NCBI GenBank assembly: GCA_004321885.1
Contig: SCQK01000022.1
Location: 1 to 3,770, forward strand
From: Patescibacteria group bacterium
GTDB taxonomy: Bacteria > Patescibacteriota > Patescibacteriia > Magasanikbacterales > GWA2-37-8
DNA length: 3,770 nt
Direction: 5' to 3'
This document shows positions 1 through 3,770 of the stretch, piece by piece. Each line of letters starts with the position of its first letter. The stretch's first letter is position 1. The position numbers and the translations under genes were made by a program. Under the pieces are notes generated by a model. The model did not search any database. It was given only the letters and a program-made list of their open reading frames with translations, and was not told where the DNA came from.

Positions 1-57
1 TTTTACCGCTTCCGCTCGAAACTCCTTCGTGTACCTTCCCTGTGGAATCCCCTTCAT
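1..57 (-). CDS. Partial (first 19 codons) IS3-family transposase OrfA (HTH DNA-binding subunit); the gene continues beyond the left edge of the window
   Basis: The reverse complement of 1..60 reads AGGATGAAGGGGATTCCACAGGGAAGGTACACGAAGGAGTTTCGAGCGGAAGCGGTAAAA. The ATG is at 57..55 and the ORF stays open to the window edge, translating MKGIPQGRYTKEFRAEAVK. The R-Y/F-T/S-x-EF-K/R-x-EA-V/L-K pattern is the characteristic N-terminus of IS3/IS51-group OrfA proteins. A GGAGGT Shine-Dalgarno lies 7 nt upstream on the minus strand (+ coordinates about 65-70). Only 19 aa are visible, so this is a motif-level call. Confidence 0.42.
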   Translation of the reverse strand, partial: MKGIPQGRYTKEFRAEAVK

Positions 58-125
58 CCTGACACCTCCATCATTGCATTTTACACGACTTTGGTGTCCA
101 GTTTTTCCATCCTACCTCAACTGAC
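1..125 (-). mobile_element. Probable terminal 125 bp or so of an IS3-family insertion sequence (left inverted repeat, 5' UTR and start of orfA). The right boundary is uncertain, somewhere in 117-130
   Basis: OrfA starts at 57 on the minus strand. IS3-family elements usually carry about 60-70 bp between the TG... terminus and the orfA start and end in TG/CA. Candidate termini on the + strand are the TCA at 117-119 or the CA at 129-130. No second copy is present in the window to define the inverted repeat. Confidence 0.3.
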
Positions 126-174
126 AAGGTTCGGTTTCGCGCTATAGTAGCCTTGGGCTGAAGGAACGTATGCG

Positions 175-218
175 CAACCCTTTGGAGTGTACTGCACTCC
201 AAAGGGTTGTTCTGTTTT
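175..218 (+). terminator. Intrinsic-terminator-like structure: a perfect 15-bp inverted repeat (CAACCCTTTGGAGTG / CACTCCAAAGGGTTG) with a 5-nt TACTG loop, followed by TTCTGTTTTG
   Basis: Read directly from the sequence. The arms are 175-189 and 195-209, and a T-rich tract follows at 210-218. On the minus strand the hairpin is not followed by a T-run, so if it terminates anything it does so for rightward (+) transcription. It could instead be a protein operator upstream of the 366 gene. Confidence 0.5.
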
Positions 219-365
219 GAGAAGCTGGGGTGCAGTAGGCGGGAAGCGATAGGAGCGTGACCCCTTCACCTGCTCTGGAGCGGAAATACCCCACGCGGCC
301 AGGGAAAGGATTGGCAAGGGGTGTTCCCTTCTGCCTTCCGAACACCAATCAAAAGGAGATTGAAA

Positions 366-524
366 ATGAAAACCAACCATCTTGTTCGCACACTGGCAGC
401 GTTCGTCCTATTGGCGGCGATCTTTACCTTCGCGTTCAGCGTGCAAGCCGCGTCGCCCAATGGTGTTGATCACCTTCGCGGCCGCTGGGACGGTACGCTC
501 CAAAACCTGTACGGGGACGACTAG
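366..524 (+). CDS. 52-aa ORF encoding a Sec-type signal peptide (MKTNHLVRTLAAFVLLAAIFTFAFSVQA, then ASPNG...) that ends at an in-frame TAG. It is probably the N-terminal part of the downstream secreted-protein gene, which would make the locus a pseudogene or a readthrough gene
   Basis: AAAGGAGA Shine-Dalgarno at 352-359, 6-7 nt before the ATG at 366. The peptide has a positively charged n-region (K, H, R), a 16-residue hydrophobic core and an A-x-A-like VQA cleavage site. The stop is TAG at 522-524. The reading frame (position mod 3 = 0) matches ORF 570..1595, and 525..569 contains no stop. Confidence 0.5.
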   Translation: MKTNHLVRTLAAFVLLAAIFTFAFSVQAASPNGVDHLRGRWDGTLQNLYGDD

Positions 525-569
525 CCTTTCCGCCTCCTGTTTGACCGTTCAGGGCCTGACCCAAACGAC

Positions 570-1595
570 TTGCAGGCTGCACTCTACAACGGATGTATGG
601 CCGTCGGCTCGGGCGGACAGTATACGCCCATTTCTGCTCGTGTGATCGTCAGCGGCAGCGGACAGTTTGATGTCACGATTTTCGGGACACCCCTGGGATC
701 GGTGATCAAACTAACAGGGTTGGCAGAGACGCGCGGAGCTGGCATTACGGATGATTCCGTCGACGGAGCGTGGCAGACTCAGGATGCCTGGGGCGATTGG
801 TCTGCCTTTCATCATGATCGACGCAACCCAAAATGCCCGGCAGTTGAGATAGGGAATGGTTTGCACTTCCGGGGTGACGTCTCTGCCGCCCGCTTTAAGC
901 GGGCGGCAGAAAGCATAGGTGAACAAACCATTCTTGAGGGCATGACCAATATCGTTTCGTCTGGGATGAGAGTGACTCTACCGGATGGAAACAGTGTGGA
1001 TGTTCCGTCCTACACTGATATTTTCTCTCCATCAGTAAATTTCATCGATTCATTCCGCTTCACGACCCTCTTCCCGGGCCTGCCAGTCAGCGGTGGTAAC
1101 CATGCATTCGCTCTTCTTGATATATTCGGCCAGCCAATTCCTGGTGCGACCTCCAACGATGTCTGGAACGCCTGTTTACAGGACGCACCGCGTAATGTTT
1201 CCGCGATCGTGAATGCTGATGGGATTCTCGCAACCTGGAATCCCGTTCCTGTTGTGCCCGGCTTTGACCCGAGCGGTAGTCCATCGCTGGGTTTCTATCA
1301 AATTGAGATTCGCCAGGATTTGGGTGGTGATCTTTATGGTGCGAGTCTCATCCTCAATAGTTCGCATTTAATTCCGTTCCTGGATTTCGGAGGCGTTGGG
1401 CCTGGCGTTCCCGATGGAAATAATTTTGGGAGCAGCCTGCTGGAATTAGGTAATGGCACCTACGTCTTCGACGTAATTGCTTTCTCCAAAGGTGTCCCTG
1501 GAACTGCTTCAGCCGGATTGGAATGTCAGGTCCGTGCCGTGGATGAGCAAATCCACTTCGAAAAATCGGGGGCCACGATTACCGTCCTACCTTGA
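570..1595 (+). CDS. Hypothetical secreted or cell-surface protein. It is rich in Gly, Asn, Ser and Thr, has 5 Cys, and carries a fibronectin type III-like domain at the C-terminus (about 1180-1592). The start is uncertain: TTG at 570, ATG at 597, or truly 366 if the TAG is read through
   Basis: A 341-codon ORF ending in TGA, with no transmembrane segment. The C-terminal segment reads ...ILATWNPVPVVPGFDPSGSPSLGFYQIEIRQDLG...GNGTYVFDVIAFSKGVPG..., which fits the FN3 pattern of a Trp in strand B, a Y-x-I/V-x-I/Y stretch in strand C and Y-x-F-x-V-x-A in strand F. No Shine-Dalgarno precedes either 570 or 597, and there is no signal peptide on this ORF itself. Antisense ORFs inside it are shadows. 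Confidence 0.7.
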   Translation: MQAALYNGCMAVGSGGQYTPISARVIVSGSGQFDVTIFGTPLGSVIKLTGLAETRGAGITDDSVDGAWQTQDAWGDWSAFHHDRRNPKCPAVEIGNGLHFRGDVSAARFKRAAESIGEQTILEGMTNIVSSGMRVTLPDGNSVDVPSYTDIFSPSVNFIDSFRFTTLFPGLPVSGGNHAFALLDIFGQPIPGATSNDVWNACLQDAPRNVSAIVNADGILATWNPVPVVPGFDPSGSPSLGFYQIEIRQDLGGDLYGASLILNSSHLIPFLDFGGVGPGVPDGNNFGSSLLELGNGTYVFDVIAFSKGVPGTASAGLECQVRAVDEQIHFEKSGATITVLP

Positions 1596-1655
1596 AAAGG
1601 CGATCGGCGCGAAAAACAAAGTCCTAGAAACCCCCACCTCCAACCCCCTCCCCCG

Positions 1656-2199
1656 ATAGGGCGCATCGCTGGGTTGCGCGAGGCGATCCGTTGGGTCAAC
1701 AAATTCCGGGGACACCACACGCAATGCGTGACGTTGTGCTGACGCCGCCATAGCGTGGCCGCGTGGCAAGAATCGCACGGATCGTCGCGCCAGGCCAACC
1801 CCATCACGTCACATAGCGGGGCAATCGCCGGTAGGCGACTTGTTTCTGTGAAGAGGACGATGCGACATACCTCCGCATGATGTCTGAGTGGTGCTCCCGC
1901 TGGAACGTGGAGGTGTGGGCGTACTGCTTGATGCCCAATCACGTACATATGATCGCGGTTCCCGTTTCAGGCGAAGGCAACGGTCTCTGAGGGTCACACC
2001 CTTGCTTGAAATGGTCTGGACTTGGCGGGACGTTCTTCTGAGTGACGTATCGGGTGACGAGCGTGACAGGATACGGCGTCATGAGAGGACGGGCAGACCT
2101 GTGGGGAATGACGGGTTTGTTGAAACGCTTGAACAGGCATCGGGTTGTATCCTGCACCGCCAGAAGCCAGGGAGGAAAAAGGGGCTGAACCGGAAATGA
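1656..2199 (+). pseudogene. Decayed IS200-like/RayT-like (COG1943, Y1 HuH tyrosine transposase family) gene. The start codon is mutated to ATA, there are at least 2 frameshifts, and about 85 aa are missing from the middle
   Basis: Frame 2, 1841..1990, reads CFCEEDDATYLRMMSEWCSRWNVEVWAYCLMPNHVHMIAVPVSGEGNGL and then a stop; the H-V-H HuH motif is at 1940-1948. Frame 1, 1981..2199, reads RSLRVTPLLEMVWTWRDVLLSDVSGDERDRIRRHERTGRPVGNDGFVETLEQASGCILHRQKPGRKKGLNRK and then a stop, which matches the conserved C-terminal tail of this family (...RTGRPLG.D.F...LE...GR.L.P.KPGRK...). Frame 0 from the ATA at 1656 reads IGRIAGLREAIRWVNKFRGHHTQ..., resembling the family N-terminus M-x-R-x-A/P-R-x-x-x-P-G-x-P-H-H-V-T-Q-R-G-N. 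The piece RGKNRTD at 1762.. lies in a third frame. The conserved region between the HuH motif and the V-x-P-L-L-E segment is absent. Confidence 0.6.
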
Positions 2200-2367
2200 G
2201 TATGGTGTCCCCCGACTAAAGACCCAGCGTTAGCCATCTACTGTGCAACGAAGTGTGGCGCTTAACAGGTAAGCGTGGCATACTGAACTTAAAGATTGCT
2301 CCGGTCTAGGCGTTAGGCTCAATGAATCAGCATTGACGGAATGTTGTCAGGAAGGAGAGACTAGACC

Positions 2368-2568
2368 ATGTCAAAGGTAGACGAACTCAAAACGGAAATC
2401 GAGCAACTTCCCCGGGAGGAGTTCTCGAAACTCATCCGCTGGCTGTCAGAAAAGGAATGGGAGAGGTGGGACAAGGAGATCGAAGCCGATTCTGAAACGG
2501 GAAAGCTGGATTTTCTGGTGCGTGAGGCGATTGACGCGAAAGCTAAGGGAAGTCTTAAGGACCTGTGA
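2368..2568 (+). CDS. Type II toxin-antitoxin antitoxin: a 66-aa acidic, helical protein
   Basis: AGGAAGGAGAG Shine-Dalgarno 8 nt upstream of the ATG at 2368. The protein is MSKVDELKTEIEQLPREEFSKLIRWLSEKEWERWDKEIEADSETGKLDFLVREAIDAKAKGSLKDL. The pattern L-P-x-E-E-x-x-x-L-x-x-W-L followed by W-x-R-W-D-x-x-I-E-x-D-x-x-x-G-K-L-D-x-L-x-x-E-A is typical of small addiction-module antitoxins. Its stop overlaps the start of the downstream toxin ORF (CTGTGA). Confidence 0.7.
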   Translation: MSKVDELKTEIEQLPREEFSKLIRWLSEKEWERWDKEIEADSETGKLDFLVREAIDAKAKGSLKDL

Positions 2569-2828
2569 GGCATCGTACGACAGCTCGGTTTTGGGCTCAC
2601 CTTGCTTGCCTTCCAGAAGGTGTCCAGAGAGTGGCCCGACGAAACTTCGCGCTCCTGAAAGAAAATCCTGCACATCCTTCGCTACACTTCAAAAAGGTTG
2701 GCAGGCTGTGGTCCGCGAGAGTTGGGCCTCATCATCGGGCGCTGGCGGTTGAGGACGGCGCGGATTTCATCTGGGTTTGGATCGGTGCTCACGATGAGTA
2801 CGAGCGAATCATCGAGCAGCAAGGCTAA
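2565..2828 (+). CDS. Type II toxin-antitoxin toxin of the RelE/ParE superfamily (ParE-like, HigB/YafQ-like mRNA interferase fold); 87 aa with a GTG start
   Basis: The GTG at 2565 overlaps the antitoxin stop by 4 nt (GTGA), and an AAGGA sits 4-5 nt upstream. The protein MRHRTTARFWAHLACLPEGVQRVARRNFALLKENPAHPSLHFKKVGRLWSARVGPHHRALAVEDGADFIWVWIGAHDEYERIIEQQG carries the conserved N-P-x-H-P-S-L ... W-S-x-R-I/V ... R-A-L ... W-x-W-I-G-x-H-x-x-Y-D/E-x-I/L signature seen in ParE-like and YafQ-like toxins. Its small size and its position downstream of the antitoxin also fit. Confidence 0.68.
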   Translation: MRHRTTARFWAHLACLPEGVQRVARRNFALLKENPAHPSLHFKKVGRLWSARVGPHHRALAVEDGADFIWVWIGAHDEYERIIEQQG

Positions 2829-2992
2829 CTCCTAGCTCCAGGTCAATCGCTAATCGCGACGGCTGAGCGATGCGTCAGGCTGTCACCTCTGTCCAACAAA
2901 CCAGAATTAAACGGGCGTTCCACCCCTTCCATTATACAAGCTCGCCTCCATGACTTCGATAGTCTCTTGCTCCCTCCTGAAATCCCCCCTCG

Positions 2993-3012
2993 CCCCCCTT
3001 TTGAAAGGGGGG
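2993..3012. repeat. Strong GC hairpin CCCCCCTTT-TG-AAAGGGGGG (a C6 stem, with an extra C6 run just upstream and a G7 run), not followed by a U-tract on either strand
   Basis: Read directly: 2984-2989 is C6, 2993-2998 is C6, 3007-3013 is G7. The stem has 6 GC pairs plus 2-3 AT pairs. Homopolymeric G7/C6 runs are also prone to slippage. Confidence 0.4.
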
Positions 3013-3398
3013 GAACTGAGATTGCCGCGCACCCGTCTGGTGCTACTCAGAAACTGGCTAAGTGGTCAGTTTCACAATTACGGTCACGTATCCGTTCGTG
3101 GTGAGCTTGTCGAACCATGAACGTGGAGGCCACCCTTCGACTGGCTCAGGGTGAACGGATTCGTGGCATAGCTATGAAATGCTATACTACGTTTCTCCCG
3201 TCTGCGGGTCAGCCTCGCCGGATGGATTACTCGCAACGACAGACAAACGAGCGGGTTGCGCGATCAATCTCTTCTCGGGTGCTGCCAAGCGATGCGGTCG
3301 CAGAACCCATCAGAAGGCGAGTGATGTTGCAAGCATTCAGGAGCCGAAGATGGGCTATGGAAGCGGATTTTTCTGGTGTGCTCTTCAGGAGAAAAGAC

Positions 3399-3427
3399 TT
3401 GACAGTCTTGGAATCGTTAGTAATATA
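3399..3427 (+). promoter_or_regulatory. Near-consensus sigma70 promoter: TTGACA (3399-3404), a 16-nt spacer, then TAATAT (3421-3426). The -35 element is embedded in the inverted repeat AAGACT-TGAC-AGTCTT (3394-3409)
   Basis: Read directly from the sequence. The -35 is a perfect consensus and the -10 matches 4 of 6 positions with a 16-nt spacer (TATAAA is also possible at a 19-nt spacer). The predicted transcription start at about 3433 leaves a leader of about 80 nt before the ATG at 3515. Confidence 0.5.
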
Positions 3428-3450
3428 AAAGTGAGATTGTATGGCGCGTT

Positions 3451-3495
3451 GCCCTTGGGTTACGTAGCGCGACGATGAGCGGAGGGGCCAAGGGC
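3451..3495 (+). promoter_or_regulatory. Leader stem-loop: GCCCTTGG (3451-3458) pairs with CCAAGGGC (3488-3495) around a 29-nt loop, and it ends 2 nt before the AAGGAGG Shine-Dalgarno
   Basis: Read directly: an 8-bp perfect inverted repeat inside the 5' UTR of the 3515 gene. It may be an attenuator or regulatory structure. Confidence 0.3.
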
Positions 3496-3514
3496 GCAAG
3501 GAGGTCAGGCGACA

Positions 3515-3770
3515 ATGAATGACCCCGAAAAGGGCTCGGCGAGGTTAAGTTCTCTCAGAAAGACCATGCGGAAGCTCTCTGAGCAGCTTCCAGGGAGCGA
3601 CGCGACGTATCACCGTAAGCTTTCTCAATACGAGGATGAGATCGAGGTCCTCCAGGCGCAAGTGAAGACGCTCGAAGAGGAGATCTATCACCTGACGCGG
3701 CGACTGGACCAGACCCCGAAAGAGTTTGAGTTTCTCCGGTCCAAGCTCGACCAATCCCGCGAACAGTTGG
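3515..3770 (+). CDS. Partial (N-terminal 85 aa) hypothetical coiled-coil protein; the gene continues past the right edge
   Basis: AAGGAGG Shine-Dalgarno at 3498-3504, 10 nt before the ATG at 3515. The frame is open to the window end: MNDPEKGSARLSSLRKTMRKLSEQLPGSDATYHRKLSQYEDEIEVLQAQVKTLEEEIYHLTRRLDQTPKEFEFLRSKLDQSREQL, with heptad-like spacing of E, K, Q and L. It was missed by the ORF track because there is no stop in the window. The minus-strand ORF 3545..3754 is its Leu-rich antisense shadow. Confidence 0.65.
   Translation, partial: MNDPEKGSARLSSLRKTMRKLSEQLPGSDATYHRKLSQYEDEIEVLQAQVKTLEEEIYHLTRRLDQTPKEFEFLRSKLDQSREQL

Follow-up and report, generated by a model that had tools for sequence, protein, structure and literature searches.

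The window analyzed here is the whole stretch of 3,770 nucleotides that makes up NCBI contig SCQK01000022.1 in full (positions 1 to 3,770, forward strand), which is deposited as Patescibacteria group bacterium. It holds a secreted-protein gene, a transposase pseudogene, a candidate toxin-antitoxin (TA) module and the start of a proteasome ATPase gene. The pseudogene is the main subject of this report and lies between short terminal inverted repeats (TIRs) at 1701-2218. This segment is very probably a dead, non-autonomous remnant of a TIRtron, a genomic fossil of an ordinary sort whose catalytic core is gone. A TIRtron is a unit of about 740 bp, in which one RayT-like Y1/HUH tyrosine transposase gene is placed between short TIRs with the core GGGGACAC. 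The features of the element, in which L001-L006 denote contigs with related copies, are as follows.

1701-2218, plus strand: the whole degenerate TIRtron, 518 bp; its intact counterpart would be about 749 bp
1705-1723, plus strand: left TIR, core GGGGACACCACAC at 1708-1720, 12/13 to the family core
1729-1757, plus strand: remnant of a conserved upstream box pair, GTGACG, 17 nt, TAGCGT; TTGACT/TTGACA in intact relatives
1763-2199, plus strand: coding remnant of the Y1/HUH transposase pseudogene, from tblastn to intact 222-aa relatives and Pfam Y1_Tnp
1763-1963, plus strand: N-terminal coding remnant in frame +2, comprising codons 1-67 and holding two TAG codons and NHVH
1763-1765, plus strand: start-codon position, GTG; ATG in L001-L006
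1814-1816, plus strand: nonsense change CAG to TAG, from the alignment
1832-1834, plus strand: nonsense change CAG to TAG, from the alignment
1937-1948, plus strand: HUH motif NHVH, within the VEVWAYCLMPNHVHMIAVP block, frame +2
1963/1964, plus strand: junction of an in-frame 231-bp deletion (77 codons), by which residues 68-144 of the intact protein were lost
1986/1987, plus strand: 1-bp deletion and G to C change, frame +2 to +1, the single frameshift
1987-2199, plus strand: C-terminal coding remnant in frame +1, with the helical domain and the stop codon TGA (2197-2199)
2197-2215, plus strand: right TIR, core GTATGGTGTCCCC at 2200-2212, 13/13

The transposase remnant and its ends

The original prediction, which was made from the sequence alone, had claimed a fossil of an IS200-like/RayT-like Y1/HUH transposase, and the fossil was borne out by profile and protein searches. 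The translation of 1752-1987 scored 29.3 bits with Pfam Y1_Tnp (PF01797; gathering cut-off 23), against 53-54 bits for intact relatives. The joined remnant had 7974 homologous proteins, the best of which were uniformly about 222 aa long and showed 72-79% identity over each half. In tblastn, the intact proteins P0001, P0003 and P0013 each gave exactly two significant high-scoring segment pairs in the window, and no other window match to these three proteins was found below E = 0.4. The two pairs were collinear, as the prediction implied: residues 1-72 of P0001 match 1763-1978 in frame +2 (76% identity, E = 1e-34), and residues 155-217 match 1993-2181 in frame +1 (75% identity, E = 7e-26). The alignment of P0003 reaches residue 222, which corresponds to window 2196.

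The predicted VEVWAYCLMPNHVHMIAVP block and the RHERTGRPVGNDGFVETLE...KPGRKKG C-terminus are thus both present, in frames +2 and +1, respectively, and the original stop at 2197-2199 is kept. In the three-frame translation of 1600-2260, the N-terminal remnant reads RVARIARIVAPGQPHHVT, stop, RGNRR, stop, ATCFCEEDDATYLRMMSEWCSRWNVEVWAYCLMPNHVHMIAVPVSGEGNGL, stop in one frame, and the C-terminal remnant reads ...RVTPLLEMVWTWRDVLLSDVSGDERDRIRRHERTGRPVGNDGFVETLEQASGCILHRQKPGRKKGLNRK, stop in the other. The large internal deletion that had been suspected was mapped against intact L004 and L005 as the in-frame 231-bp loss. The HUH block and the C-terminal block are indeed brought closer together, though the spacing is about 38 codons against 116 in intact proteins, rather than about 30 against about 120. 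N-terminal pieces had been placed in two further frames, but they share the frame of the HUH block and are interrupted by the two TAG codons; likewise, in place of several frameshifts there is only the 1-bp deletion at about 1986/1987. The intact relatives have the motifs NHVH, HLWQGRF and RYVELNP; of these the window keeps only NHVH, since the W and Y motifs went with the deletion. Of the C-terminal domain, the window keeps the part aligned to residues 155-222. No Pfam helix-turn-helix (HTH) match was found at E<=0.01 in the HMM search of the intact relatives.

With regard to the family, the NCBIfam model REP_Tyr_transpos (NF047646) gave 26.8 bits for the window piece and 69-74 bits for intact relatives (cut-off 80), and transpos_IS200 (NF033573) gave 15.3 and about 18 bits, respectively (cut-off 55). 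The RayT-like half of the predicted label therefore stands and the IS200 half does not, with 15-18 bits against 55. The element is RayT-like, yet neither a REPtron RayT nor an IS200. The whole window had no Rfam match at E<=1.

The ends of the element were recognized from comparison of the copies. Homology with L001-L006 starts at about 1701 (AAATTCCGGGGACACCACAC) and stops at about 2218 (...GTATGGTGTCCCCCGACTA), within 3 nt on either side, and the flanks differ beyond. Within 1590-2300, the longest inverted repeat pairs 1705-1723 with 2197-2215 (19 nt, 84% complementary). The inverted-repeat core bounding 1701-2218 is GGGGACACCAYAC. When the core GGGGACACCATAC was searched at up to 2 mismatches, two window sites were found, inverted and at both ends, against 0.05 expected, and the core also occurs at the ends of the intact elements L004-L006. 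These flanking repeats are 13-19-nt inverted repeats and individually non-palindromic. The element ends with ...GACTA at 2218, and three independent right junctions break immediately 3' of GACTA. No direct repeat abuts the true ends 1701/2218 as a target-site duplication.

A different anatomy had been proposed, in which an IS200/RayT fossil starts from an ATA at 1656, lies in pieces in four frames and is bracketed by the 8-mer TCCCCCGA as a flanking duplication or a REP (repetitive extragenic palindromic) remnant. The 8-mer is indeed found at two sites, where chance predicts 0.24 for the whole window, though each copy is shifted by one base from the position first given and is located at 1649-1656 and 2208-2215. 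It is, on the other hand, one of five exact direct repeats of equal length within the same 711 bp. Its right copy lies within the right TIR and is conserved along with the element, and its left copy is in window-specific sequence 45 bp outside the element, in conflict with a flanking duplication or REP remnant. Moreover, in none of the frames was there a family match upstream of 1763, Pfam and NCBIfam gave no match for the frame-3 translation of 1656-1880, the homology to other copies begins only at 1701, and the start position is 1763-1765. The alignment of the copies, the repeat survey and tblastn thus refute the ATA-start, 8-bp-flanked anatomy, which we regard as highly improbable.

Lesions, sister copies and decay

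The lesions were mapped by nucleotide alignment with the intact copies in L004 and L005 and three deleted copies, together with mapping of coordinates and residues. Both TAG sites are CAG (Gln) in L001, L003, L004 and L005, and the stretch is deleted in L002. The deletion junction reads CCCGTTTCAGGCGAAGGCAACGG in DNA and VPVSGEGNGLVRV in protein. The window matches two independent Logan assemblies, found via the antitoxin, with 100% identity over 1582-3004, and misassembly of a single contig is therefore not the source of the lesions.

An AlphaFold (AF2) model of intact P0001 (mean pLDDT 87, 42-sequence alignment) places a strand at 14-20, a helix at 30-46 and strands at 49-57 and 60-67 in the N-terminal part, with HUH at 60-62. 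In the later part, it predicts a helix at 70-92, a strand at 103-108, a helix at 110-121 that carries RYVELNP with Tyr119, and a helical C-terminal domain at 141-204. The best structural match of the model in the PDB was Escherichia coli TnpA-REP/RayT 4ER8 (Foldseek E 2.8e-8, TM 0.74 on target), and the next ones were the ISDra2, IS608 and IS200 transposases. 4ER8 was also the only PDB sequence match for P0001 (phmmer E 4e-4). The catalytic-tyrosine helix (RYVELNP, Tyr119) is present in the intact relatives and deleted in the window. Judging from the model, the deletion takes away the central helix 70-92, the core strand 103-108 and the tyrosine helix. Even if it were the only lesion, the product could not be a transposase.

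The in-frame TAG codons raise the question of recoding, by which TAG would be read as Gln and the genes would be unbroken by it. All 3/3 in-frame TAGs of the window (522-524 in the upstream gene, 1814-1816 and 1832-1834) replace CAG/Gln of homologs, and no complete open reading frame (ORF) of the window ends with TAG. However, when TAG arises by transition it does so most commonly from CAG, hence 3/3 is not significant, and TAG ends ordinary genes in the close relatives L001, L003 and L006. The transposase remnant is also frameshifted and without its catalytic core, and L003 has a TGG to TAG lesion. Recoding was rejected on the ground that the relatives use TAG as a stop, and we find it hardly credible; the three in-frame TAGs, all in place of CAG, are most likely ordinary nonsense mutations.

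The identical 231-bp deletion junction was found in three more contigs, namely L001 (protein P0002; JGI sample 3300010391), L002 (protein P0055; ENA ERZ27249422) and L003, which comes from a metagenome-assembled genome (MAG) of Candidatus Methylomirabilis oxygeniifera (JACPQW010000183.1). A scan with junction-specific DNA gave one match in genome_contigs, a related MAG, in a representative set to which the source genome does not belong, and no match in metagenome_contigs. The window and L003 are 93% identical over 1700-2906 and 80% identical over the start of the proteasome ATPase gene. The right flank with a ParE-like TA module is common to the window, L002 and L003; L001 is without the ParE-like module and continues with the sequence that follows the module in L003, namely an insertion or deletion (indel) of the TA module. 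This shared right-flank synteny indicates that all four deleted copies are the same ancestral insertion. The contig is probably mis-binned, as suggested by its 93% DNA identity to the Candidatus Methylomirabilis MAG and by the start of the proteasome ATPase gene. As a synapomorphy, the 231-bp deletion that these copies share serves as a lineage marker that ties the contig to Candidatus Methylomirabilis-like genomes despite its Patescibacteria label.

Each sister copy has further lesions of its own: a 1-bp deletion (frameshift) in L001, a 70-bp deletion and a 1-bp insertion in L002, and a 9-bp deletion, a 1-bp deletion and TGG to TAG in L003. In the four deleted copies, the variable sites show no preference for any of the codon positions 1/2/3 (16/19/20; chi-square p = 0.78), against 22/18/48 for the intact pair. 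From the shared junction, the independent lesions and the even spread over codon positions, it follows that the deletion predates the strain split and that the copies have decayed without detectable coding constraint. The window copy is, as far as the aligned copies tell, an old relic that was inherited vertically and is decaying neutrally beside a variable TA islet.

Two related observations were made near the sister copies. L003 carries, at 4958-5107 on the minus strand and near the orthologous locus, an ends-only derivative of about 150 bp, in which about codon 14 is fused to about codon 209; its left TIR is degraded and its right TIR is perfect. L001 has a second right end of the element family at 4-120, 640 bp upstream of its own copy.

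Another explanation is that the deletion made a shortened functional protein, composed of the HUH strand region and the C-terminal domain, which acts now or acted formerly, for example, by binding TIRs as a regulator or by inhibiting transposition. The reading frame is kept exactly across the deletion, which is conserved in four contigs, and the deleted copies have dN/dS values below 1, namely 0.47-0.65 (0.23 between intact copies), although with 10-14 synonymous differences per pair this ratio is underpowered and the codon-position test is more informative. Such a protein is contradicted by the independent disabling lesions in every copy, by the substitutions being even over codon positions and by the state of the -35-like TTGAC box, which is GTGAC in all four copies. 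We therefore consider it very unlikely.

The same box deserves a separate remark. TTGAC is found 28-34 bp upstream of the start in L004, L005, L006 and the L003 mini copy. The change to GTGAC in every deleted copy could reflect loss of the promoter alongside or before the decay, and a promoter role of the box pair at 1729-1757 as a whole is conjectural. A scan of 1590-2400 for sigma-70 consensus promoters found none, the window box pair included, and a terminator-like match at 1825-1838 in the same region was at chance level.

Relation to known systems and TIRs in metagenomes

RayT-like genes flanked by TIRs that share GGGGWSAS have been named TIRtrons, and such TIRs also occur as single, dimeric and grouped sites, according to the original description (Di Nocera, De Gregorio and Rocco, 2013; PMC3733652). 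TnpAY1 subclass 2.1 has a median length of 238 aa, an extra C-terminal domain, no REPs, and the key motifs NHVH, W[EQ] and Y[IV]ELNP (Quentin et al., 2018; PMC6006769, Table 1), and in the same paper this subclass was identified with the TIRYTs that Di Nocera et al. had described. The extra domain of the subclass has been claimed to resemble an HTH fold or DnaA domain IV. TIRYT (TIR-associated tyrosine transposase), TnpAY1 subclass 2.1 and Bertels RAYT group 1 are names of one class. The kind of element is already known, and the window copy is a further example, a pseudogenised TIRYT of TnpAY1 subclass 2.1. Like a TIRtron, it has a single RayT-like Y1 gene between TIRs, and GGGGACAC on both arms fits the consensus GGGGWSAS. 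The intact relatives also resemble TIRYTs in their predicted proteins of about 222 aa with NHVH, WQ, Y[IV]ELNP and an extra helical C-terminal domain. Unlike an intact TIRYT, the window copy is a pseudogene without the W and Y motifs and with nonsense codons and a frameshift.

Compared with E. coli RayT/TnpA-REP (4ER8), the family presumably shares the HUH/Tyr chemistry, and it shares the bracketing of the gene by an inverted short repeat that is also dispersed, as well as the fold predicted for intact P0001. Unlike in REPtrons, the flanks are without GTAG-tagged self-complementary REP hairpins and the family has the additional C-terminal domain. With IS200/IS608 (IS200/IS605 family TnpA) it has in common the Pfam domain PF01797, the fold and the unit size of about 0.7 kb, but it differs in Y---NP versus Y---Q, in inverted-repeat ends versus subterminal hairpins, and in having no tnpB.

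To see how widely the ends occur, we scanned metagenomes with GGGGACACCATACNNAWT and obtained at least 120 contigs from many environments; the classes that follow were counted among the contigs listed. The convergent TIR pairs comprised 8 full units of 737-793 bp, each of which encloses a TIRYT gene, 20 gene-less doublets of 42-113 bp, 3 pairs of 2-6 kb with no gene, and 2/33 intermediates, of 285 and 478 bp. In addition, 56 TIR motifs were unpaired and lacked a gene, although the room beside them was 800 bp or more. The TIR pair of the window spans 505 bp, and together with the 231 bp deleted it makes 736 bp, the size of a full unit. Thus the window copy is a rare intermediate as opposed to a standard miniature derivative, and the pair classes agree with the published picture. 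REPINs and derivatives of the MITE type (miniature transposable elements with inverted repeats) are resembled by the gene-less inverted TIR doublets and by the ends-only derivative of L003; unlike these, the window copy is a relic of intermediate size at a conserved locus with no sign of copying.

The 231-bp-deleted unit may instead be a live MITE-like element, non-autonomous but mobilised in trans by an intact TIRYT, hence its differing flanks. Consistent with mobility, the TIRs are almost intact, the left flank differs exactly at the left end in three contigs, related genomes hold the L003 mini copy and the second right end in L001, and gene-less TIR monomers and dimers are common in the metagenomes (the 56 solo sites and 20 doublets above). 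However, the four deleted copies are at the same locus by right-flank synteny and differ mutually by 5-11%, as do their flanks, and no contig has two copies of the deletion. The rarity of intermediate sizes and the outcome of the junction scan, which matched one genome and no metagenome, point in the same direction. A live element is therefore quite unlikely.

For the dead relic, which we prefer, the comparison of the copies shows the following history. One TIRtron copy was present in an ancestor of the Methylomirabilis-like lineage, just upstream of the present-day TA islet, which itself lies upstream of the proteasome ATPase gene. Next, the in-frame 231-bp deletion took out the central helix together with a beta strand and the helix of the catalytic tyrosine, and left the HUH strand region joined to the C-terminal helical domain. 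This deleted copy was then passed on vertically and drifted neutrally. The window copy further acquired the change of ATG to GTG, the two CAG to TAG changes and the 1-bp frameshift, and the three sister copies acquired other lesions. The window copy appears to be no longer able to encode a transposase, and we saw no sign of any functional product. Its TIRs are nearly intact, so that an intact TIRYT from another locus could still use it, though as no more than a passive substrate. By analogy with TnpA-REP and IS608, intact TIRYTs presumably cleave and rejoin single-stranded DNA at their TIRs with HUH/Tyr chemistry. To our knowledge, this action on the TIRs has had no experimental demonstration, and our literature search found no experimental characterisation of the TIRYT class.

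Some points weigh against the reading as a dead relic of TIRYT type. The RayT-like label rests on the fold and motifs because even the intact relatives miss the NCBIfam REP_Tyr_transpos cut-off. The dN/dS of the deleted copies is below 1, with small counts and no single pair significant. The comparison covered the copies of the window contig and L001-L006, and the copy number and an intact helper in the rest of the source genome lie beyond it. Finally, three different left flanks break exactly at the left end of the element, for which vertical inheritance alone is no explanation, and this hints at rearrangement or mobility associated with the ends. The left neighbour is a 409-codon secreted-protein gene in the window, a 136-aa gene in L001 and L002 (in L001, a further TIRtron copy has its right end before this gene) and an 81-aa gene in L003. 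The TA-module indel likewise begins exactly at the right end of the element. These flank changes could come from insertions targeted beside TIRs, recombination between TIRtron copies, or residual processing of the TIRs in trans. We hold it unlikely, though worth stating, that the ends of the relic are still recognised by an intact TIRYT encoded elsewhere and act as break/rejoin points. If this were true, TIR recognition would explain the exchange of the left flank and the TA module at the element boundaries in sister genomes as well as the stuttered TIR edges described below, and neighbouring genes would be reshuffled like cassettes through the action of TIRYT/TIR pairs, which would then do more than copy themselves.

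A 'stutter' at the outer edge was seen at 26/158 TIR-core sites (16%) among the metagenomic contigs listed, against 1/720 in the control. It consists of the 6-7 nt outside the TIR plus a TIR start of variable length (GGG, GGGG, GGGGACAC...), tandemly repeated 2-5 times, for example in L028 at 2362-2419, L013 at 1395-1451 and L057 at 6293-6350 (among contigs L008-L127). No stutter was seen in the window copy, and no mention of it was found in the available part of the TIRYT paper (PMC3733652). The literature search gave no paper on the TIR core sequence. For annotation, 1701-2218 should be labelled as a TIRYT/TIRtron pseudogene, instead of a 103-aa or 37-aa ORF or IS200, and the 13-nt TIR core, which is kept very widely across environmental metagenomes, provides a handle for testing the TIRYT class.

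Neighbouring genes and other repeats

Downstream of the fossil, the window contains a 66-aa antitoxin candidate (no Pfam match) and an 87-aa ParE-like toxin (PF24732, 26 bits vs cut-off 24.4), and it ends with the N-terminus of a proteasome ATPase homolog, which is a 614-aa ORF in L003. Between the fossil and the proteasome ATPase gene, the cargo differs among the sister contigs: L001 encodes two BrnT toxins there, and in L003 the ParE module is accompanied by an HTH_37 protein, a PIN toxin and tryptophan 2,3-dioxygenase. The element thus marks one border of a variable TA islet, in line with the suggestion of an old insertion beside a TA module. The idea of a decaying islet is also reasonable, as the upstream 409-codon gene has a CAG to TAG change at codon 53. 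This gene (366-1595) is made up of a signal-peptide ORF at 366-524 and a 341-aa ORF at 570-1595, separated by the TAG at 522-524. Its full-length homologs are 403-412 aa long with up to 83% identity, mostly labelled Chloroflexi, and have Gln at the stop site (GDDQPFRLL). A 332-aa ORF of the window is on record as 'hypothetical protein EPN28_04935 [Patescibacteria group bacterium]'.

Several repeats were observed in the islet. A repeat of about 90 bp at 2950-3044 contains CCCCCCTTTTGAAAGGGGGG and a G/C hairpin at about 2993-3012. Two direct copies of it in L001 (1371-1445 and 3826-3901; 95% identical) bracket BrnT/antitoxin cassettes, and both Logan contigs stop within it, at 3004. Possibly this repeat marks the boundaries of cassettes in the TA islet. 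Further on, an imperfect palindrome at 3085-3165 has 30-nt arms with 77% complementarity and a 21-nt spacer (...GTGAGCTTGTCGAA / TTCGACTGGCTCAGGGTGAACGG), and the segment 3045-3229, in which it lies, is absent from the collinear stretch of L001.

To the left of the element, the 41 bp at 1659-1699 are 85% identical to an intergenic sequence of L001 (2550-2590) upstream of a BrnT gene. Before them, at 1629-1654, comes a tandem AACCCCCACCTCC/AACCCCCTCCCCC; this small repeat has no relation to the transposase. At the contig edge, the minus strand of 1-57 holds the start of an ORF, MKGIPQGRYTKEFRAEAVK (19 aa), which we take to resemble the N-terminus of an IS3-family OrfA. The putative IS3 neighbour of the original prediction is this 19-codon fragment, which is too short for the family searches. 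Self-BLAST also revealed short near-perfect palindromes at 175-209 (35 nt, 91% self-complementary) and 882-910 (29 nt, 97%), the latter inside the 409-codon gene.

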